Shown piece by piece: positions 2 through 44,550 of a DNA stretch of 64,000 nt; the stretch's first letter is position 1; the number at the start of each line of letters is the position of its first letter. The notes under the pieces were generated by a model. That model was not told where the DNA came from. It did no database searches and saw nothing but the letters and a program-made list of their open reading frames with translations. Source of the stretch: Candidatus Entotheonellaceae bacterium (lineage in GTDB: Bacteria; Tectomicrobia; Entotheonellia; Entotheonellales; Entotheonellaceae); contig OZ250173.1 in assembly GCA_965238075.1 (NCBI GenBank), positions 1,184,001 to 1,248,000 of the forward strand, read 5' to 3'. The translations under genes were made by a program, and so were the position numbers.

Positions 2-184
2 CAGGACGGCAGGTCCATCGTCGGATTCGCGCCGGAGGTGGCCAACGTGTACGTGGCCACCACCCACAGCGGGGTGACGCTAACGCCGTTGATCGGCGCC
101 TTCGCAGCGATTGAAATCGTGCACGGGGCGCGGGTGGAGGTGCTGGCGCCGTTTCGGCCGGAGCGATTCGGAAGCCCGGTGTGA
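2..184 (+). CDS. FAD-dependent oxidoreductase (DAO/glycine oxidase family), C-terminal fragment cut by window edge
   Basis: Manual translation QDGRSIVGFAPEVANVYVATTHSGVTLTPLIG...LAPFRPERF* matches the DAO-family C-terminal pattern; not in ORF track. Confidence 0.75.
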   Translation, partial: QDGRSIVGFAPEVANVYVATTHSGVTLTPLIGAFAAIEIVHGARVEVLAPFRPERFGSPV

Positions 185-275
185 CGGGCCGTCTGGACCT
201 GATAGCCTGAGACGCTTATACTGGCGTCCCTTTTTTGCAGCCTCCCCCCACGCCCCAAACGGAGAACCCGACCCC

Positions 276-3875
<3,600 letters not shown>

Positions 3876-3960
3876 TCCGAGGCGTGGGGGCTGGCAACCA
3901 GGAATCTCCCCCGGCACCGTTGGGGAAGCGGATTGAAACATTCACACCGGAGGTAAGAAA

Positions 3961-4812
3961 ATGACCACAGAAGGCTACGCCCACCCCGAGCTTCTTTGCG
4001 ACACGGAGTGGCTGGGGGACCATCTGGACGACCCCAACGTGCGCGTCGTGGACTGCGACCAGTTCATGGAGTATCGCCGCGGGCATATCCGCAACGCCGC
4101 GGCCATCATGGCCCCGCATCACTACGTCAAAGAACTCGGCTATGAGCGGGCTCCGAAGACGCACCCGCTGGTCATGCCGCAGGAGCCCTTCACCGACCTG
4201 ATGATGCGCATGGGCATCGACGACAACACGACCGTCGTCACCTACGACCAGTCGGCCAGCCTGTACGCCACGCGCTTCTGGTGGGTACTGGGCCTCTACG
4301 GCCACACCAACGTCAAGGTGCTCAACGGCGGCTGGCGCAAGTGGTTCGACGAAGGGCGGCCGCTATCCATCGATTCGCCGCCGGCCCGCGACACCAAGTG
4401 GGCACCACAGCGCCAGCGGGACTGGGTCTGCACCCTTGAGGACGGGCTGGCCGCGGTTGGCGACCCAGACACCATCTTCCTGGACGTGCGCTCGCCGGCA
4501 GAATGGGACGGCAGCAACGACCGCGGCAACAGCCGGGCCGGACGTATCCCCGGCGCCGTTCACCTGGAGTGGACGGACCTGATGGACACCGACCGCGCCC
4601 GCAACTTCCTGCCCGCCGACAAGATGCGGGTCATCCTGGCGGAGCGTGGCGTGACGCCGGACAAGAGAATCATTACGTATTGACAAGGTGGCATCCGTGC
4701 GGCGCACGGAATGTTTGTGTTGAGGCTTCTCGGCTACCCGCATGTTCGCAATTACGACGGCTCCATGAACGAATGGGCCAACCGCGACGACACGCCGCTG
4801 GTGCTCGATTAA
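3961..4812 (+). CDS. Tandem-domain rhodanese/sulfurtransferase (SseA-like), probable selenoprotein (TGA 4681-4683 = Sec), 283 aa
   Basis: Rhodanese motifs GHI..A, A.RFWW.L, LNGG, DVRS, GRIPGA; frame continues past TGA as [12 protein letters not shown]...[16 protein letters not shown] to TAA 4810-4812. Confidence 0.85.
4684..4718 (+). promoter_or_regulatory. Putative bacterial SECIS hairpin
   Basis: TCCGTGC-GGC-GCACGGA stem-loop (4694-4710); G-leading loop starts 17 nt after the UGA; further pairing possible below the stem. Confidence 0.7.
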
Positions 4813-4845
4813 CGGACGTGTTTCGGAATCTTCTATGCGGATTAT

Positions 4846-4878
4846 GTGGGTCGGATTAGCCGCAGGCGTAATCCGACA
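4846..4878 (+). repeat. GTAG-type REP-like palindrome
   Basis: GTGGGTCGGATTAGCCGCAGGCGTAATCCGACA hairpin between convergent genes; related copy at 11207-11236. Confidence 0.65.
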
Positions 4879-4887
4879 TTGCGCTGA

Positions 4888-5487
4888 CTACACCCCACCG
4901 TCGAGGCAGCGTTGCCGCTCGGCGGCGGCGAAGGCTTGCAGCTTGGGAAAATAGTCGTGAAAGTCCTCGACAAAGTCGGGGAGTTGCGCGTCGAGGAGCG
5001 AAGCGAGCTTGGGGCTGAGATGGGTGATCCGCAAGCGGCTCAGGACGTACTGCAGCGCGCGGTCGCGCACGGCTGGCTCGGCATATCGCACTAGCAGGTC
5101 GGTGTCGATCATGCGCTCGATGAACGGCCTGCCTCTGTCGGGCACGTACGCATCGAACCGGCGCAGAGCAGTATAGACCTCGGCGGTGAAGTCGGTGAGG
5201 GCGACGCTGGCGTAGCGCGGCCACGTCAGCGCGAGGCAATGATCAGCCACGATGTCGAGCAGCACGGGCGCGGCCCGTCGCAACTCGACGTCGAAGCGCG
5301 CGATGCTGGGTTTCATGTCAGCCAAGCGGTTGGAAAACGCGTCGATGCGCCGGTGCAGGCGAATGCCGGCGCGCAGCTCGGTCGGCAGCGACTCGGGCAC
5401 CCTCCCCTTCACGAAATCGCCGAGCACCCCGCCGGCGATCCAACCCTGGCCGGGCCAGGCCAACAGGCAATGGGCGAGAAAGTTCAT
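4888..5487 (-). CDS. acpH: Acyl carrier protein phosphodiesterase
   Basis: MNFLAH...LGDFVKG...GIRLHRRIDAF...DHCLA motif series of the AcpH family. Confidence 0.85.
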   Translation of the reverse strand: MNFLAHCLLAWPGQGWIAGGVLGDFVKGRVPESLPTELRAGIRLHRRIDAFSNRLADMKPSIARFDVELRRAAPVLLDIVADHCLALTWPRYASVALTDFTAEVYTALRRFDAYVPDRGRPFIERMIDTDLLVRYAEPAVRDRALQYVLSRLRITHLSPKLASLLDAQLPDFVEDFHDYFPKLQAFAAAERQRCLDGGV

Positions 5488-5529
5488 ACGGTTAACGCCT
5501 GGGATTTGATTATCTTACCGGCGACTCCA

Positions 5530-6666
5530 CTACAAAGCCGGCCGGCTGGAAGTGCCGTAGCCGGTGAGTTCCACATAGCCCTTGCCCACCGGTAGGCCGT
5601 CCTGTAACAGCTTCACGGCCCCTTCCCAGTAATGTAGCGTGCCGATCAGGCTGCTGCGGTTCTCCTGGTCGGCCATCTCGACCACTATTTCCAGATCAAG
5701 CTGCTCCCGTGGAATGGTCAGGCGCCAGCGCGACGGGTAAACGCCTTCGGTGTGCGGGCTTTTCCAGCGTGCCTGACTGGTGACGGTGAAGGTTCCCCTG
5801 TCAAGGTACGTGGCGCTGCCGTCCGGGTACACGACCGTGCCGCTGGCGAAGTCGGTGGTGCCGTCCTCGCGCCGCAGGAGGAAGAGCATGACCTCTCGCC
5901 GGTCGTCGAGTTGCAGGCTGAACCAGTCCCAGCCGAGCTGGTGCGGCGCCAGAACGCTGGTGAAGAATTCCTTGTCCATCCAGCTTTCGCCGCTGACCTG
6001 CCACGTCTGGCCATCGAGGCTCAGGTGGCCGCTGGTTTGCAGCCGGGTGAAGCTGTAGTACAGGCTGGCGCCGCTGCCGGATTGCGTTTTGCGGCTGTAG
6101 CCGTTGGGGCCTTGGAAGACGAGAGGTTTGCCGGGCTGCGTGGACAGTGAGAAGGCCATACCCTGCGCGTCGTCGCGCATGTCGAAATCGAAGCCGCTGC
6201 CGTTCCACGATAGCCGCCATTGGCCGGGGGTGCCGGCCGGCGCTTGGCTCCAGGCGATCAGCGGCAAACTCGCTTCGCTCGCTCGCTGTGGCCAGTCCCC
6301 GAAGCCGCCCAACAGCGGGACGGCGCGGTAGATCACCTCGCTGAAGCGGTGCTCGTTGCGGTCCAAGTCGCTGACCGCGGCGTGGCCCATGATCAGGCCG
6401 CGGGCCGCCCAGGCGGAATCCGCATCGGGTGCCGTTGGCAGCACGCCGACGCGGAAGAACGTGAACTGGTAGCCGAAGCGCCGCCCGTCGTCGGCCTGCA
6501 AATGGCCGGTGAAGTACCACCATTCCGTTTTGTAACCCTCGTGCGCCCAGTGGTCGCGGGGGAACGACCAAACATAGTCCGGTTGCGCCGTTTTCCAGTC
6601 GTTGGCTGCCACCGGGTTCAAAACGCCGAGGATCAGCAGCGCGATGAGTACCCGTTTCATCGTCAA
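5530..6666 (-). CDS. Secreted lipocalin-like/AttH (carotenoid 1,2-hydratase-like) protein
   Basis: Signal peptide; FPRDH..H..Y.TEWWYFTG, YYSFTR, WMDKEF, GWDWF, YWEG, GYVELTGY motifs. Confidence 0.8.
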   Translation of the reverse strand: MTMKRVLIALLILGVLNPVAANDWKTAQPDYVWSFPRDHWAHEGYKTEWWYFTGHLQADDGRRFGYQFTFFRVGVLPTAPDADSAWAARGLIMGHAAVSDLDRNEHRFSEVIYRAVPLLGGFGDWPQRASEASLPLIAWSQAPAGTPGQWRLSWNGSGFDFDMRDDAQGMAFSLSTQPGKPLVFQGPNGYSRKTQSGSGASLYYSFTRLQTSGHLSLDGQTWQVSGESWMDKEFFTSVLAPHQLGWDWFSLQLDDRREVMLFLLRREDGTTDFASGTVVYPDGSATYLDRGTFTVTSQARWKSPHTEGVYPSRWRLTIPREQLDLEIVVEMADQENRSSLIGTLHYWEGAVKLLQDGLPVGKGYVELTGYGTSSRPAL

Positions 6667-6675
6667 TCCTCCTCG

Positions 6676-9243
6676 CTACAAATCGTCCCGGCTCAACGCC
6701 GCCGCGCCTCGGGCTACCAAGCTTTGTCCCGCCCACCCTACGCGGAACGCCGGATACAGGCTCGCCAGCACGGCAGCGCCGAGAATGGTCGCCGCCTGCT
6801 GAGCGATCAGGCCCCAATCCACGTACGGCTGAATCGTCCAGCCAAAATAGGCGCGGTTGATGACGTAGATCAGCAATCCGGCCAGCAGCACCCCGCCGAT
6901 GCTGCCCAGCGCCAGGCCCATGACGCCCATGCTCAGGCCCTTGCCCACGAAGACGCCGAAGAGTTGCCGCCCCCTGGCGCCGAGCGAGCGGCACAGCGCC
7001 AGTTCCGAGACCTGCTCGCGCGCCAGCACCAGCAGCATGAGGGCGATACCGCAGACGGCGATGAGCAGGCTCATGAACTGCAGCAGGCGTGTAATCGCGA
7101 ACGTCTGGTCGAAGATGGCCAGCACCTCCTCGCGCAGGCGGCGATTGCTCCGCACCTCGAGCGGCGCATTCGCTAGCGCGGCCTGCAGTTCCGCTACCAC
7201 AGCGGCCACGTCGGCGCCGGGGCGCAGGTACAGGGCGGTGCTGCTGACAGGACCCGGGCCGAACGCCTGCGCCATGGTGCGCAGGTCCATGGCCGCGGCG
7301 CCGTCGCCAGCGCTGTAATCGTAATACACGGCCGCGACGGGAAAGCGCTGCACGCCGGTGGGCGTGTGAATGGGCAGGACGTCGCCGACCCACACGCCGG
7401 CCTTGCGGGCCAGCGTCTCGCCGACGAAAACGCCGCGGCGCTCGCGCACCGCCTCGTACGGATTGGGCAGCGCGCCGGGAAGAAAGGGAAAGCGGCTGAG
7501 CCCTTGCGCCAAGCCCATCTCGACGCCGGAAATGGTGATGCGCCGGACGGTGGCCGTCTGCCAGTCGCCCGTGTAGCCGTGAAATCGCCGCAGGCGGTCG
7601 ACGGCCTGCACCGCTGGATGGCCCGTGACGCTGGCCATGACGTGCGGCTCCAGGCCGCCGTCGCTTCCGGTGCCACGCCACGAAGCCGGGGCGATGTACA
7701 CGTCTGCCTGGATCGAGGTGCCGATCCACACGCTGAGGGTCTGGCGAAAGCTGCCGATCATCAGGGTGATGCCGATCAGCATGCTGACCGCCACCGCCAG
7801 CGACGCCACCGCCACCGAGGTCGTCTGCAGCCGCACGCCGAGCCCCTTCAGGCTGTAGCCGAGACCGAAGCCCCGCACCCGAATACGGGCGCACAACTCG
7901 CGCACCAGCAGCGGGGTCAGCAGCGGCAGGGTGAGCAGCAGCACCACGGCGAGCACGAACCCGGCGTGCTGCCAATGGCGGCCGTGCAGACCGTACCAGG
8001 CGGCGGCCGTCAGCGGCAGCGCCACGCCGAGGGCGAACAGGCGCGGCGCCAGGCTGCCGACGGTTTCGTGCAGCGTGAAGGCCGACAGCAGCGCTCGGGT
8101 ATCGCGGCGCGCCATGTCGAGGGCGGGCAGCAGCGCCCCGACCACGGCGCCGCCGATGCCGATGCCGATGCCGAGGACGTACAGCCACGTCGTCATCTCC
8201 AGGCGGGCGATTTCTTCCAGCAAATAGAGATTGCTGAGCGTGGCGCTGACCACGCGCACGTTGGCCTGCGCCACGCCGTAGCCCAGCGGTAGGCCGAGGG
8301 CGGCGCCGAGGCCGCCCAGCAGGCCGACCTCGGTGATGATGAGTGCAAACACCTGGCGGCGCGTGGCCCCCAGCGAGCGCAGCAAGCCGAATTCCTCGCG
8401 CCGCCGCACCAGGGCCGCCTGGGTGCTACTGTAGACGAGAAACACGCCGACAAACAGGCTGATAAGGCTGAGTGCGGTGAGATTGAGCTGAAACGCCGAC
8501 AGCAAGCCCTTGGCCTGCGCTTCCCGCTGTTCCGGCGTCACCACCCGCACGGCCGGGCCGAGGCGCTCTTGCAGGCGCGCCCGCATGGCGGCGGTGTCGG
8601 CGCCGTCGATGAGTTTGACGTCGATCTGATGGATGGCGCCGGCATCGCCGAACAGACTCTGTGCCTGGGCGATGTCCATGACCGCCAGTTTGGGACTGGC
8701 CAGCGGATTGAGGGCGTGAAAATCGACCAACGCGCCGACCGTCAGATGCACCAGCCGGGAACCCCACGACACCGTGAAGGCGTCGCCGACGCGCCAGCCC
8801 ATTTGCTCGGCCAGGAGCGGTGTCAGGGCCACCCAACCCGGTTGGCTGAGGGCCGCCGCCGGGTCTCCCGGCTCGCCTTGCCAGGGGATGTCGACCGGCG
8901 TGAAGAAATCGACGCCGATGAGGTCGAGCATGCCGTCATCACGGCCGGATAAGGCCACGGCGGCACGCCACAGCGGCCAGGCCGCCTGCACGCCGGGCGT
9001 GGGCAGGACGCGCGGGTAGAGGTCTTCGGGGAAGCTCGGTGTGTAGCCGAGCACGCTGAGGTCGGCCTCGCCGCTGACCGCCTTGACGCTGCCCGCGAAG
9101 GCGGCGATGGCGTTGCGGTTGATGATCTGGATCGACAGCACCGCGGCCACGCCGAGGGCCACACCGAGAATGGTGAGCAGGTACAGGCTGCCGCCGGCTC
9201 GCAGGTGGGCCGCCATGGCGGTGACGAAATAGCGCCGCATCAT
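6676..9243 (-). CDS. FtsX/MacB-like ABC permease (AttF/G-like, duplicated)
   Basis: 855 aa, two MacB/FtsX-type halves, RREEFGLLRSLGAT motif. Confidence 0.8.
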   Translation of the reverse strand: MMRRYFVTAMAAHLRAGGSLYLLTILGVALGVAAVLSIQIINRNAIAAFAGSVKAVSGEADLSVLGYTPSFPEDLYPRVLPTPGVQAAWPLWRAAVALSGRDDGMLDLIGVDFFTPVDIPWQGEPGDPAAALSQPGWVALTPLLAEQMGWRVGDAFTVSWGSRLVHLTVGALVDFHALNPLASPKLAVMDIAQAQSLFGDAGAIHQIDVKLIDGADTAAMRARLQERLGPAVRVVTPEQREAQAKGLLSAFQLNLTALSLISLFVGVFLVYSSTQAALVRRREEFGLLRSLGATRRQVFALIITEVGLLGGLGAALGLPLGYGVAQANVRVVSATLSNLYLLEEIARLEMTTWLYVLGIGIGIGGAVVGALLPALDMARRDTRALLSAFTLHETVGSLAPRLFALGVALPLTAAAWYGLHGRHWQHAGFVLAVVLLLTLPLLTPLLVRELCARIRVRGFGLGYSLKGLGVRLQTTSVAVASLAVAVSMLIGITLMIGSFRQTLSVWIGTSIQADVYIAPASWRGTGSDGGLEPHVMASVTGHPAVQAVDRLRRFHGYTGDWQTATVRRITISGVEMGLAQGLSRFPFLPGALPNPYEAVRERRGVFVGETLARKAGVWVGDVLPIHTPTGVQRFPVAAVYYDYSAGDGAAAMDLRTMAQAFGPGPVSSTALYLRPGADVAAVVAELQAALANAPLEVRSNRRLREEVLAIFDQTFAITRLLQFMSLLIAVCGIALMLLVLAREQVSELALCRSLGARGRQLFGVFVGKGLSMGVMGLALGSIGGVLLAGLLIYVINRAYFGWTIQPYVDWGLIAQQAATILGAAVLASLYPAFRVGWAGQSLVARGAAALSRDDL

Positions 9244-9983
9244 GACGGGTGAGGGGCGGCGGGCGCCTCGGCCTCGGCGTGCGGACTCAGGACACCGCTG
9301 TGCAGACGCCAGACCTCGTCCGCCAGGGCAGACACCTCGCGGCTGTGGGTTACGAAGATGAGCGTGCCGCCTTCCTCGGCGACCAGCGACAGCATCAACT
9401 CCATGACGCGCCAGCCGTTCTCGTCGTCGAGGTTGCCGGTGGGCTCGTCGGCGAGCAGCAGGTGGGGTCGGCGCATCAGGGCGCGGCAGATGGCGACGCG
9501 CTGCATCTCGCCGCCGGAGAGCTTTTGCACCCGTTCGTGGGTGCGGTCACTCAGGCCGACACGGTCCAGAAGCTGCGCCACGCGGGGCTCGAACCGTCGC
9601 GGTTTGTCCCCGGCGATGAGGGAAGGCAGGGCGACGTTGTCATGCACCGACAAGTGAGGCATGAGGTAGAAGAATTGGAAGACGAGGCCGACGTGATCGC
9701 GCCGCAGGGTGGTGCGGGCGGTTTCGGACATTTCAGCTAGGGAGCGGCCCATGACCCGGACGTCGCCGCGGGTGGGGACGTCGATGCCGGCGGCGAGGTG
9801 CAGCAGGGTGGACTTGCCGCTGCCGCTGCGGCCCACGATGGCGATGCGGCGGCCCTCCGGCACCGCGAACGACAGGTTGTGCAGAACGTGCCGCTGCTCG
9901 CCGCTTGGGGCCGCGTAAGCCTTGCTCACAGCGTCGAACGCGAGGACTGCTGTCGAGTTGTCGGCCACGGGCTGGCTTTCCAT
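9240..9983 (-). CDS. ABC transporter ATP-binding protein (LolD/AttE-like)
   Basis: GRSGSGKS, LSGGEMQRVAI, LLADEPTGNLD. Confidence 0.9.
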   Translation of the reverse strand: MESQPVADNSTAVLAFDAVSKAYAAPSGEQRHVLHNLSFAVPEGRRIAIVGRSGSGKSTLLHLAAGIDVPTRGDVRVMGRSLAEMSETARTTLRRDHVGLVFQFFYLMPHLSVHDNVALPSLIAGDKPRRFEPRVAQLLDRVGLSDRTHERVQKLSGGEMQRVAICRALMRRPHLLLADEPTGNLDDENGWRVMELMLSLVAEEGGTLIFVTHSREVSALADEVWRLHSGVLSPHAEAEAPAAPHPS

Positions 9984-41043: not shown

Positions 41044-42660
41044 ATGAGAGGCGTACCCGAGATACATGCACCAGGGGTCGAGTTGAGTCGGCGGGAATTC
41101 GTGGCCGGCGCCGGCGGCGCCGTGGCTGGGCTATCGGCCCTGGGTCTGCCTGCCACCGGCGTCGAGGCGGCTACGCCGCAGCATGGGGGCTCGGTCAAGA
41201 TCGGTTTGCGGAGCGACGTCAGCCGCCTCGACCCGCATCCCCTCTTTCCCCCTTACCCTACGTCCAACGCTGCGGCGCTGCTCTACAACGGCATCACCGA
41301 GGTGGACGCCGACGCCAACATCGTCCCCGCTCTGGCGCATGCCTGGGAGGTCTCCGAGGACGGCCTGACGTGGACCTGGCACATCCGCAAGGACGTGACC
41401 TTTCACAACGGCCGCCCGATGACCGGCACCGACATCAAGGCCAACCTCGAGCGGGTGCTCAATCCCAGAGTCGGAGCGATCATTCGCGGCGAGTTGGACA
41501 TCATCGACCGCATGGACATGCTTGATGACTACACCCTGCGCATGACCCTGAAGTACAAGTACTACCCTCTCCCCTCCGTCCTGTCCAACCGCTGGCTGCC
41601 CATCCTCGACCCGCAAAGCTTCGACACCGCCAAGCAGCACCCCGTCGGCACCGGGCCGTTCAAGCTCGTCTCCTGGAAGCGCCTGCATACCACCGAGATG
41701 GTTCGGCACGAGGGGTATTGGGAAAAGGACGCCGACGGCAATACTCTGCCCTACCTCGATGAGCTTATCGGCAAGCCCTTGGCCGACGACACCGTGCGCC
41801 TCACGGCCCTGCGCACCGGCGAGGTGGACGTGGTTGACGCCGTCAGTTACCGCGACTTGGCGCGCTTCATGCAGGAGTGGACGGACCAGTTTGACACCTA
41901 CCTGATCAAGGCCATCGGCACCACCTGGTACTGTTTCAATACCCAGAATCCGCCCTTCGACGACGTGCGGGTGCGCCGCGCCGCCGCCCTGGCGCTGGAC
42001 AAGCAGGCCATTCTGGACAAGACCCTCTTCGGGCACGGCGAGATTATGAATCAGTACTACCCGCAAGCCTCGCCGTGGCATCTGCCGGTCGCGTCGTCGC
42101 GGGAGCAAGATGTGGAGGAGGCCAAGCGTCTGCTCGAAGAGGCGGGCGTCAAGCCGGGCACGCATCTCACCATGGTCACTTATGCGCGGTACAACTATGT
42201 GAAAGAGTCCAGCCAGATTTTCCAGCAGAACCTGCGCAATCTCGGCTTCTCCGTAGACCTGAAAATCCTCGATGCCGGCCCCCTGCGTTCCGCCCTATCC
42301 GGCCGCAGATTCCACATCTCCGGCCTGGGCACCGAACATCGCATGGACCCGCACGAGTACTATTTCAGGGAATTGAGCTCCAAGAGCCCGATACAGAAAC
42401 GGTTCTACAGCGCTTGGGTGAACCCGGATTATGACAAGCTGATCTACGAAGCCCGGCGCACCGCCGGCCGTGAGGCGCGCATGCAACTCTACGCCGAGGC
42501 CGAAAAACTCATCCAGGCGGATGTGCCCACCGTGCGCGTGATCAGCGCCCACACCCTGTCTGCCTGGCAGAACGGACTGCAGGGATACAGCCCGAATGTC
42601 GCCGGCAACATGACCTACAACCACGGAGGGCTGCGAACCGCCTGGCTCAAAACCGGCTAG
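41044..42660 (+). CDS. ABC substrate-binding protein family 5 (peptide/nickel), Tat-exported, paralog 1
   Basis: SRREFV Tat motif, VPALA..WEVSEDGLTWT, VTFHNG, PVGTGPF. Confidence 0.85.
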   Translation: MRGVPEIHAPGVELSRREFVAGAGGAVAGLSALGLPATGVEAATPQHGGSVKIGLRSDVSRLDPHPLFPPYPTSNAAALLYNGITEVDADANIVPALAHAWEVSEDGLTWTWHIRKDVTFHNGRPMTGTDIKANLERVLNPRVGAIIRGELDIIDRMDMLDDYTLRMTLKYKYYPLPSVLSNRWLPILDPQSFDTAKQHPVGTGPFKLVSWKRLHTTEMVRHEGYWEKDADGNTLPYLDELIGKPLADDTVRLTALRTGEVDVVDAVSYRDLARFMQEWTDQFDTYLIKAIGTTWYCFNTQNPPFDDVRVRRAAALALDKQAILDKTLFGHGEIMNQYYPQASPWHLPVASSREQDVEEAKRLLEEAGVKPGTHLTMVTYARYNYVKESSQIFQQNLRNLGFSVDLKILDAGPLRSALSGRRFHISGLGTEHRMDPHEYYFRELSSKSPIQKRFYSAWVNPDYDKLIYEARRTAGREARMQLYAEAEKLIQADVPTVRVISAHTLSAWQNGLQGYSPNVAGNMTYNHGGLRTAWLKTG

Positions 42661-42927: not shown

Positions 42928-44550
42928 ATGATGAAGGACCTGTCTGAAACACACGTGCCAGGAACCGAGTTCAGTCGGCGTGAGTTCGTGGCTGGCGCCG
43001 GCGGCGCCGTGGTTGGAATGTCGGCTCTGGGTCTGCCCGCCGGCAGCGCCGAAGCGGCGACGCCGAACTACGGCGGCTCGATCAAGATCGGCTTGCGGAG
43101 CGACATCAGCCGCCTCGACCCGCATCCCCTCTTTCCTCCTTACCCCACCTCCAACGCCATGGCGCTGCTCTACAACGGCCTTACCGAGGCGGACGCCAAC
43201 ACCAACATCGTCCCCGCTCTGGCACACGCCTGGGAGACCTCCAAGGACGGCCTGACGTGGACCTGGCACATCCGCAAGGACGTCACCTTTCACAACGGCC
43301 GCCCGATGACCGGCGCCGACGTCAAGGCCAACCTCGAGCGGGTGCTCACCCCCAAGGTCGGCTCCGTCATTCGCGGCGAGCTGGAAATCATCGACCGCAT
43401 GGACATGCTCGATGACTACACCCTGCGCATGACCCTGAAGGACAAGTACTACCCCCTCCCGGCCATGCTGACCAACCGCTGGCTGCCTATTCTCGACCCG
43501 CAGACCTTCGACACCGCCAAGAGACACCCCATCGCCACCGGGCCGTTCAAGTACGTCTCCTGGAAACGCCTGCACACCACCGTCATGGCCCGGCACGAGG
43601 GATACTGGGAAAAGGACGCCGACGGCAATACCCTGCCCTACCTCGACGAGATCATCGGCAAGCCGCTGGCCGACGACACCGTGCGCCTCACCGCCCTGCG
43701 CACCGGCGACGTGGACATGATCGACGCCGTCAGCTACCGCGACCAGACCCGCTTCATGCAGGAATGGACCGACCAGTTCGACACCTATCTGATCAAGGCC
43801 CTCGGCACCATCTGGTATTACTTCAACGCCGAAAGGCCGCCTTTCAACGACGTGCGGGTACGCCAAGCCGCCGCCCTGGCGCTGGACAAACGCGCCATCC
43901 TGAACAAGACCCTCTTCGGGCACGGCGAAATCATGCACCAATACTACCCGCAGGCGTCGCCGTGGCGGCTGTCCGGCACGTCGCCGTGGGAGCACGACGT
44001 CGACAAAGCCAAGCAACTGCTCAAGGAGGCGGGCGTCAAGCCGGGCACCAAGCTCACCCTGGTCACCTTCGCGCGCTACAACTACATCAAGGAGGGCGCG
44101 CAGATTTTCCAGCAGAACCTGCGTCAGCTTGGCTTGTTCGTGGACCTGAAAATCCTCGACGCTGGCCCCATGCGCGTCGCCCTGAAGAGTCGCGAGTTCG
44201 ACATCTTCGGCCTGGGCAGCGAGCACCGCATGGACCCGCACGAGTATTACTTCAAGGAACTGAGCTCCAAGAGCCCGGTGCACAACCAGTTCTACAGCGG
44301 CTGGGTGAACCCGGACTATGATCAGCTGATCGAAGATGCCCGCCGTACCGCGGACCGGGAAACCCGCAAGCGCCTGTACGCCGAAGCCGAAGGGATTATC
44401 CAGGCGGAAGTGCCCAAGGTGCGCTCGATAAGCGCCCACAATCTGTCTGCCTGGCAAAACGGTCTGCAGGGCTATCGCCCGAACGTCGCCGGCAACCTCA
44501 CCTACAATCACGGCGGCTTCCGCACGGCCTGGCTCAAAAACAGTGGCTAG
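42928..44550 (+). CDS. ABC substrate-binding protein family 5, Tat-exported, paralog 2
   Basis: Collinear and highly similar to 41044-42660. Confidence 0.85.
   Translation: MMKDLSETHVPGTEFSRREFVAGAGGAVVGMSALGLPAGSAEAATPNYGGSIKIGLRSDISRLDPHPLFPPYPTSNAMALLYNGLTEADANTNIVPALAHAWETSKDGLTWTWHIRKDVTFHNGRPMTGADVKANLERVLTPKVGSVIRGELEIIDRMDMLDDYTLRMTLKDKYYPLPAMLTNRWLPILDPQTFDTAKRHPIATGPFKYVSWKRLHTTVMARHEGYWEKDADGNTLPYLDEIIGKPLADDTVRLTALRTGDVDMIDAVSYRDQTRFMQEWTDQFDTYLIKALGTIWYYFNAERPPFNDVRVRQAAALALDKRAILNKTLFGHGEIMHQYYPQASPWRLSGTSPWEHDVDKAKQLLKEAGVKPGTKLTLVTFARYNYIKEGAQIFQQNLRQLGLFVDLKILDAGPMRVALKSREFDIFGLGSEHRMDPHEYYFKELSSKSPVHNQFYSGWVNPDYDQLIEDARRTADRETRKRLYAEAEGIIQAEVPKVRSISAHNLSAWQNGLQGYRPNVAGNLTYNHGGFRTAWLKNSG

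Follow-up and report, generated by a model that had tools for sequence, protein, structure and literature searches.

Does an in-frame TGA end a rhodanese gene, or does it encode the catalytic residue? The question is raised by the locus at 3961-4812 (+) of the window, by which is meant the whole stretch of 64,000 nucleotides that was analysed (Candidatus Entotheonellaceae bacterium, assembly GCA_965238075.1, contig OZ250173.1, positions 1,184,001 to 1,248,000). The open reading frame (ORF) list, prepared with translation table 11, gives a protein of 240 aa that ends at this TGA, at 4683; an initial annotation, made from the sequence alone, had proposed a hidden rhodanese with selenocysteine (Sec) in place of the catalytic cysteine. 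The comparisons described below make it very probable that 3961-4812 (+) encodes a two-domain rhodanese of 283 residues, the nucleophile of which is a Sec residue specified by UGA 4681-4683.

Reading frame and catalytic position

The complete coding sequence (CDS) starts with ATG at 3961 (+), 7 nt downstream of a Shine-Dalgarno-like GGAGG (3949-3953 (+)), and comprises 283 codons followed by TAA (4810-4812 (+)); all three signals were read from the sequence. The translated gene matches its locus in the genome of origin at 100%, with one in-frame TGA. This codon (4681-4683 (+)) stands in the context IITY*QGGIRAA, which gives the putative Sec motif UQGG, and the frame is continued by 42 further codons up to the TAA. 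The initial annotation had described the ORF-track stop within this context, the 42-codon continuation through the C-terminal signature, and a perfect 7-bp stem with a G-leading loop 17 nt past the UGA; each was recovered from the sequence.

Pfam Rhodanese (PF00581) was matched in two stretches (133.2 bits). The N-terminal rhodanese domain (3994-4365 (+), residues ~12-135, limits approximate) was placed by PF00581 and the secondary structure of an AlphaFold model, and is catalytically inactive. As expected for such a domain, Asp96, which follows strand 91-95, occupies in the model the position equivalent to Sec241; it is retained in 73 of the 75 Sec forms (the other two have gaps) and in 15/15 Cys forms, these being the loci with TGA and TGC, respectively, at the column of residue 241. 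The C-terminal catalytic domain (4447-4782 (+), residues 163-274) was assigned from the best PF00581 stretch, from alignments with 1UAR, 3HZU and 1E0C, and from the fold (template modelling (TM) score 0.86). Pfam, model and fold matches thus agree on a tandem rhodanese with an inactive N-domain and a catalytic C-domain.

A phmmer search of the Protein Data Bank returned 1UAR as the best match by sequence (1.4e-49), together with 3HZU and 1E0C. Residue 241 was aligned on the Cys of the loops CRIAERS (1UAR), CRIGERS (3HZU) and CQTHHRS (1E0C), and this Cys, which opens the active-site loop, is taken here to be the catalytic one, as established for those enzymes. The three proteins (from Thermus thermophilus, Mycobacterium tuberculosis (SseA) and Azotobacter vinelandii (RhdA), in that order) share domain order and nucleophile position with the present one at 33-36% identity; they are Cys enzymes, whereas the loop here is UQGGIRA, with Sec predicted. 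The AlphaFold model is confident through the C-terminal end (predicted local distance difference test (pLDDT) 93.5, predicted TM score (pTM) 0.92), and its TM score against both 1UAR and 1E0C is 0.86. In the model, residue 241 lies in a strand-loop-helix cradle between strand 236-240 and helix 245-256, where it would open a six-residue active-site loop as the nucleophile. The 42 residues past the TGA retain the rhodanese C-terminal motifs.

The term SseA-type, used in the initial annotation, holds only loosely. The protein is assigned as a COG2897-type tandem rhodanese and not as an SseA equivalog, because NF008557, the NCBIfam equivalog for 3-mercaptopyruvate sulfurtransferase, is aligned over its full length (residues 12-281) with 127.7 bits, below the cut-off of 250; the nearest structures are 1UAR and 1E0C. 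Escherichia coli SseA (NF008557; 1URH) accordingly shares the fold and the full-length alignment and differs in that equivalog score. The present loop presumably also differs from the CG[ST]GVT type of 3-mercaptopyruvate sulfurtransferases.

Two further cysteines were recorded. Cys157 (4429-4431) is present in 52/75 Sec forms and 0/15 Cys forms (Ala in 14), and Cys32 (4054-4056) in 66/75 and 15/15, respectively. For Cys157, a role in resolving a Se-S bond is conceivable, the pattern being confounded by phylogeny.

Conservation of the UGA and of the hairpin

In a set of 61 related genomes (own genome included), one in-frame TGA was found in the orthologue of the own genome and of 5/5 same-genus genomes (90-95% identity), and in three same-family genomes of two other genera (56-57% identity); translation places it at one and the same column throughout. 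In homologues of 43% identity or less, this column is occupied by Cys. The initial annotation had named a lack of TGA-bearing relatives as grounds for regarding the codon as a simple nonsense mutation, and the five same-genus genomes speak against this. A fourth family member (L026, on G006:C1) keeps TGA and hairpin and has a frameshift ~12 codons upstream of the Sec codon; in this genome, which is shared with locus L108, the frameshift points either to a fault in the assembly or to recent loss of the gene as a pseudogene.

A contig scan with one genome per species yielded 513 confirmed relatives, the best 80 of which were kept. Among these best 80 of 513, the column reads TGA in 65 and, within the same motif, TGC in 15, and 40-46 in-frame codons follow the column in each locus (two of the 65 TGA loci, missed by the motif search, were read by eye from the sequence). 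The titles of these records mention Dehalococcoidia/SAR202, Binatia, Gemmatimonadetes, Methylomirabilota, a 'Deltaproteobacteria' bin, Entotheonella and others. In total, 75 TGA loci (72 distinct coding sequences) were found at this column vs 15 TGC loci, which is the Cys/TGA pairing that a search of homologues had been proposed to reveal; an in-frame UGA is thus aligned with the Cys of homologues, as in selenoproteins. A rhodanese homologue of 35% identity in a same-class relative (G016:C623:11256-12065 (+)) likewise contains one in-frame TGA.

Translation beyond the UGA was assessed from mean pairwise differences at codon positions 1/2/3. For codons 251-283 the values are 0.035/0.009/0.134 among members of the genus and 0.22/0.21/0.53 when all Sec genes are compared; for the upstream 240 codons they are 0.039/0.030/0.163 and 0.33/0.26/0.57, respectively. 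The differences past the UGA are third-position-biased, as they are upstream; the downstream sequence thus bears the mark of translation and constraint, and protein-coding selection extends beyond the UGA.

The hairpin that follows the UGA lies at 4694-4710 (+) and was delimited by the RNAalifold consensus, by pairing, by silent sites and by the contrast of Sec and Cys genes. Its 7-bp stem (4694-4700/4704-4710, UCCGUGC/GCACGGA) encloses the loop GGC (4701-4703); it consists of a conserved 6-bp core (4695-4700/4704-4709, CCGUGC/GCACGG) and an outer U-A pair (4694/4710). The distance from the UGA is 10 nt to the 7-bp stem, 11 nt to the core and 17 nt to the loop. The hairpin is composed of the codons for Ile245-Arg-Ala-Ala-His-Gly250.

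For the alignment, 66 nt from the UGA onward were taken from the TGA loci (70 distinct sequences of 75). The consensus fold from RNAalifold coincides exactly with the 6-bp hairpin (columns 15-20 paired with 24-29). When the stem is counted as 7 bp, 97.3% of the cells are paired, compared with 15-71% for slid controls, and 0/500 shuffles reached the observed pairing values. At pair 15-29, 67 sequences have C:G, two have the compensatory A:U and one has U.U; at pair 19-25, 69 have G:C and one has the compensatory U:A. All six pairs can be formed in 74/75 TGA genes vs 0/15 Cys genes. A lower helix of the selenocysteine insertion sequence (SECIS), in which CAGGG... would pair with downstream codons, was seen in many single-sequence folds; it is missing from the alignment consensus and was rejected.

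The same contrast is found at silent sites. Within IRAAH, the codons CGT-GCG-GCG-CAC (Arg-Ala-Ala-His) are used in 75, 74, 73 and 74 of the 75 Sec genes. In the 15 Cys genes, Arg246 is encoded by CGC/CGG/CGT in 8/6/1 cases, the next residue by GCC/GCG/GCA in 5/9/1 and the one after by GCC/GCG in 7/8; most of these genes belong to one clade, so they amount to fewer than 15 independent controls. Over the 72 distinct coding sequences, third-position entropy is 0 only at codons 246-249 (0.29 at Ile245), and ~0.5-2 bits at other conserved residues of the whole gene. Residue 250, the GG of which pairs with the CC of the Ile/Arg codons, is Gly in 71/75 Sec genes and Val (GTA) in 4/75, and three of the four Val250 genes carry a compensating silent change, ATC to ATA, in Ile245; of the 15 Cys genes, 14 have Ala, Ser or Thr there. 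A conserved stem-loop therefore stands directly 3' of the UGA, as in known selenoprotein genes, and what the initial annotation had called a SECIS-like hairpin behaves as a SECIS in comparison, by the 74/75 vs 0/15 contrast and by the silent-site freeze at codons 246-249.

In the bacterial SECIS, for example that of E. coli fdhF, an apical hairpin with G/U in its loop lies at a fixed short distance 3' of the UGA. The present hairpin resembles it in its position within the CDS, in the core 11 nt after the UGA and in the G-rich loop. It differs in its shorter stem (6-7 bp), a 3-nt GGC loop, no evident bulged U and no alignment-supported lower helix, and SelB binding is putative.

A quick IQ-TREE run (LG+G4, with the Shimodaira-Hasegawa-like approximate likelihood ratio test (SH-aLRT) only) was carried out on 88 family members and three outgroups, with the Sec column coded as C throughout; L026 and L108, the two copies with a frameshift, were excluded. 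The tree requires just two Sec/Cys changes: 14 of the Cys genes, those of Tepidiformaceae and relatives, group in a clade (99) that lies within Sec genes (100), and the remaining Cys gene branches at the base. Rooted on the outgroups, this quick tree would imply one early gain of Sec and one reversion. The genus of the window groups with a record titled Candidatus Entotheonella and does not group with the other Entotheonellaceae, which hints at transfer or at unresolved branches.

Selenocysteine machinery and rival explanations

The genome of origin is a single contig of 3,352,321 bases. It contains selD (318.8 bits), selA (512.6 bits), a SelB wing-3 domain (77.8 bits) adjoining selA, and a tRNA-Sec (73.9 bits, above the Rfam tRNA-Sec threshold) that was also called by ARAGORN as tRNA-SeC with anticodon TCA. 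The search for selA, selB, selC and selD that the initial annotation had recommended thus returned all four, each above its curated threshold in one genome. SelD forms the C-terminal part of a 754-aa ORF (L001:1390-3654 (-), ~G000:C1:1156211-1158475), the N-terminal 300 residues of which match pyridine nucleotide-disulphide oxidoreductase (PF07992); this ORF lies ~30 kb upstream of the rhodanese gene. Among other genomes, SelB was searched for at 50 of 79 loci, which comprise 35 of the 64 with TGA and every one of the 15 with Cys, and the wing-3 domain was found in 31/35 TGA-form and 11/15 Cys-form genomes. The distribution of SelB among carriers is consistent with Sec decoding.

In the mechanism proposed, the hairpin core CCGUGC-GGC-GCACGG (4695-4709) would recruit SelB with Sec-tRNA(Sec) as the ribosome reaches the UGA at 4681, and Sec would be inserted there in place of termination. 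The rhodanese ping-pong cycle would presumably run with a selenolate replacing the thiolate: Sec241 would bind a sulfane sulfur atom, or perhaps selenium, to give a Se-S(-) or Se-Se(-) intermediate, from which the atom would be transferred to an acceptor. The Sec-dependent transferase of the initial annotation is supported to the extent that sequence comparison allows, by the machinery in the genome, by a TGA that is not private to it and by the TGA/Cys pairing in relatives.

Several results weigh against this reading or limit it. The 60-nt single-sequence fold is unremarkable (z = -0.88; 41/200 shuffles as stable) and was therefore excluded from the evidence, so that the significance of the hairpin comes from the comparison with relatives; a hairpin of the same geometry also follows 270 of the 16,990 TGA read-through contexts of the own genome (1.6%). 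An Rfam scan of 4600-4900 gave no match at E up to 10, and Rfam seems to hold no model that catches the hairpin. Covariation is thin (three sequences, two pairs) because the stem is nearly invariant. SelB was not found in 4/35 TGA-form genomes, for which completeness is not given and one of which is a 0.8-Mb bin, and its occurrence in 11/15 Cys-form genomes means that its presence fails to separate Sec from Cys forms. The missed cut-off of the 3-mercaptopyruvate sulfurtransferase equivalog bears on the substrate class, and the gene neighbourhood is unconserved across the family (84 loci, ORF clustering). Sec in the protein is a prediction from sequence.

The gene might instead be dead, with a nonsense mutation at 4681 and the 42 downstream codons as its decaying remnants. 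The public gene calls do stop at the TGA, and the family-level orthologue L026 is additionally frameshifted; yet the TGA recurs at one column in 75 loci of several phyla, the substitutions downstream are as third-position-biased as those upstream, and the C-terminal motifs are kept in a model confident to its end, which leaves a pseudogene most improbable. An error of sequencing or assembly is practically negligible, as nothing was found in its favour, the TGA codon and its flanking 30 nt are identical in six same-genus assemblies, and the TGA recurs in dozens of unrelated ones.

Translation of the UGA into another residue deserves somewhat more weight, although it too is very unlikely. Cys might be inserted by a Sec-like recoding tRNA, or Trp or Gly under a variant code; the TGC forms have Cys at this column, and the identity of the inserted residue is inferred from sequence. 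Against a variant code stands the use of TGA as terminator of ordinary genes in this genome, for example in its Cys-type rhodanese paralogue (CRIGERS loop, 37% identity), which stops at a TGA at the conserved C-terminal end. The canonical pathway by which Sec is made on its tRNA is represented by the selA and selD genes and by the tRNA described above, called by ARAGORN and above the Rfam threshold, and classical selenoprotein families (UGSC, GrdB-like; see below) show TGA with the same hairpin geometry. It is also conceivable that read-through is rare and the 240-residue protein the main functional product. In bacteria, release factor 2 competes with the insertion of Sec, and a certain amount of truncated protein is therefore to be expected; such a protein would be missing the catalytic residue together with the active-site loop and the domain's final helix and strand, and selection on the hairpin and the downstream codons implies that the full-length form is maintained, which makes a truncated main product highly improbable. 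The Sec-containing full-length rhodanese is therefore preferred.

Related predicted selenoproteins, public records and neighbourhood

The own genome was scanned for other candidates. From the 16,990 TGA read-through frames, 495 have a coding signal in the G+C content of third codon positions (GC3) on both sides, and 125 of these also have a hairpin; Pfam was run on 26 selected candidates with TGA read as U. A Pfam domain spans the TGA in five short and one long UGSC-family proteins. Short candidates of this family (PF24696) are located at G000:C1:1107274-1107813 (+), 2942306-2942872 (+), 2110849-2111373 (-) and 2668164-2668688 (-), and the long one (566 aa) at G000:C1:189693-191393 (+); in those listed, the TGA lies inside the Pfam match and is followed by a hairpin of 6-9 bp with a short loop. 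Four GrdB-like genes (G000:C1:600341-601699 (+), 1388492-1389841 (-), 2325425-2326432 (+) and 2947150-2948346 (-)), two of them full-length and two shorter with the C-terminal part of the model only, have a TGA immediately past the point at which the Pfam GRDB model ends, with 97-237 codons beyond it. A second Sec-rhodanese candidate (G000:C1:1342532-1342894 (-)) is a single-domain protein of 120 aa with TGA at codon 80 (TH-U-GGENR), spanned by the Pfam Rhodanese match (21-113). In a MoeB/ThiF protein with an N-terminal rhodanese domain (G000:C1:2435313-2436503 (+)), the ThiF match contains a TGA, at codon 308; the Sargasso Sea paper (PMC1088965) lists MoeB as a selenoprotein family. In an Ldi-like protein (PF18566; G000:C1:3256279-3257817 (+)), the TGA at codon 228 also lies inside the match.

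Most supported candidates have a stem of 6-9 bp and a loop that starts 18-19 nt past the UGA (at 20 and 23 nt in two cases), a local style that the rhodanese hairpin (7 bp, loop at 17) fits. CoA-transferase and NAD-synthase-like candidates were rejected as ordinary TGA stops, 11 others of the 26 had no Pfam match, and formate dehydrogenase was discarded as a second selenoprotein, the FdhA homologues of the own genome having no in-frame stop. Judged from these predictions, the host genome, which belongs to an Entotheonella relative, appears rich in selenoproteins. Within the window, two small read-through frames of equal length (~41283-41519 and 43170-43406 (-)), 1.9 kb apart, carry an identical hairpin, ACGTCCTTGCGGATGT, which suggests a local duplication.

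Selenoproteins of this kind have been predicted before. The Sargasso Sea selenoproteome of 2005 lists a 'Rhodanese-related sulfurtransferase, COG2897' with three Sec sequences and predicted SECIS (PMC1088965), and a table from the GOS study of 2008 lists eight such sequences under cd01449 (PMC2398784); later entries are 'Rhodanase-related sulfurtransferase COG2897 (SseA)' (PMC9312934) and 'form 4, UxxG' (PMC13188914), both as predicted families. The present protein shows UxxG, as UQGG, in a COG2897-type protein that matches SseA-type models over its full length, and was filed in the published family on account of motif and architecture; family identity would thus follow from the motif and from the COG/Pfam assignment that both have in common rather than from a direct alignment. 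Common to both are the two-domain build, Sec on the catalytic Cys, UxxG, a SECIS directly after the UGA, many Cys homologues, an origin in marine or uncultured bacteria and a status of prediction only. What differs is the occurrence in a Tectomicrobia/Entotheonella-related genome, and nothing defines a new kind: the gene is correctly called but not new, being a further member of a predicted selenoprotein family known since 2005. In the accessible parts of the published catalogues and reviews, the family is not pointed out for this phylum; no biochemical characterisation of any Sec-rhodanese was found in the accessible literature, in which reviews place the family among predicted selenoproteins, and a literature search on selenoproteins in SAR202 found nothing. 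Single-domain Sec-rhodaneses (COG0607; NF041203, 'rhodanese-related (seleno)protein') also have Sec in a rhodanese domain but are ~120 aa long with other motifs, and NF041203 matches the present protein weakly (37.5 bits, cut-off 115).

The gene is hidden, as the initial annotation had put it, insofar as public gene calls truncate it at the TGA; the family itself was already in the selenoprotein catalogues. The own protein is on record (NCBI/ENA) as a 240-aa call, NCBI relatives of 239-240 aa are named 'sulfurtransferase', and the database entries for this gene and for the majority of its close relatives are proteins of 239-241 residues without the catalytic residue. Among the best 120 cluster matches in a collection of 5.8 billion proteins, 80 end exactly one residue short of the Cys column, 39 have Cys there in the same motif and one is a mis-joined call.

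Directly upstream, at 111-3875 (+), lies a fused tandem ABC exporter of 1254 aa with two membrane and two ATPase domains, which scores above the cut-offs of the CydD, CydC and MsbA models together; in one relative, a 405-aa call (P0075) fuses the ATPase end of the exporter to the start of the rhodanese. A repetitive extragenic palindromic (REP)-like inverted repeat, GTCGGATTA-N10-TAATCCGAC, at 4850-4877 (no strand assigned), begins 38 nt past the rhodanese stop. A role as terminator or as the end of the mRNA is possible; the pattern has 37 copies in the genome, one of them in the window, and is not gene-specific, and one copy, which follows an ordinary TGA stop, imitates a SECIS (G000:C1:2445110-2446285). 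Farther downstream, the opposite strand carries an acyl carrier protein phosphodiesterase (4888-5487 (-)), a CrtC-like lipocalin protein (5530-6666 (-)) and a MacB/FtsX-type permease with its ATPase (6676-9983 (-)); no link of the rhodanese to these genes at 4888-9983 (-) is evident.

The ORF clustering of the neighbourhoods consisted mostly of spurious overlapping frames of the rhodanese gene itself. The only recurrent real neighbours are an arylsulfotransferase-like gene (PF05935/PF14269; 13 Sec loci), located just downstream in L048, L050 and 11 Dehalococcoidia loci and in 0 Cys-form loci, and a DPP-IV-type peptidase (11 mostly Cys loci). Both are absent from this window; the neighbourhood was set aside as a clue to function and no functional link is claimed.

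The stem of the SECIS is made of active-site-loop codons and is nearly letter-identical across the family. A wider proposal, speculative and rather unlikely as a whole, is that one object serves both recoding and catalysis: through a stem nearly identical in at least five phyla, the RNA would dictate the protein sequence of the active-site loop, with residue 250 as Gly or compensated Val in the Sec forms, reversion in the nested Cys clade would have freed both constraints, and the Sec enzyme might take part in selenium trafficking, as a Se-Se or Se-S carrier for the unusual oxidoreductase-SelD fusion, rather than perform plain sulfur transfer. As it stands, the family offers a clean case of an RNA signal that freezes silent sites within a CDS, with a natural Cys control, and the Sec/Cys comparison could help to train selenoprotein finders and serve as a teaching example. 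For SAR202/Dehalococcoidia, Binatia and Tectomicrobia, sulfur metabolism inferred from the truncated calls misses the active enzyme.

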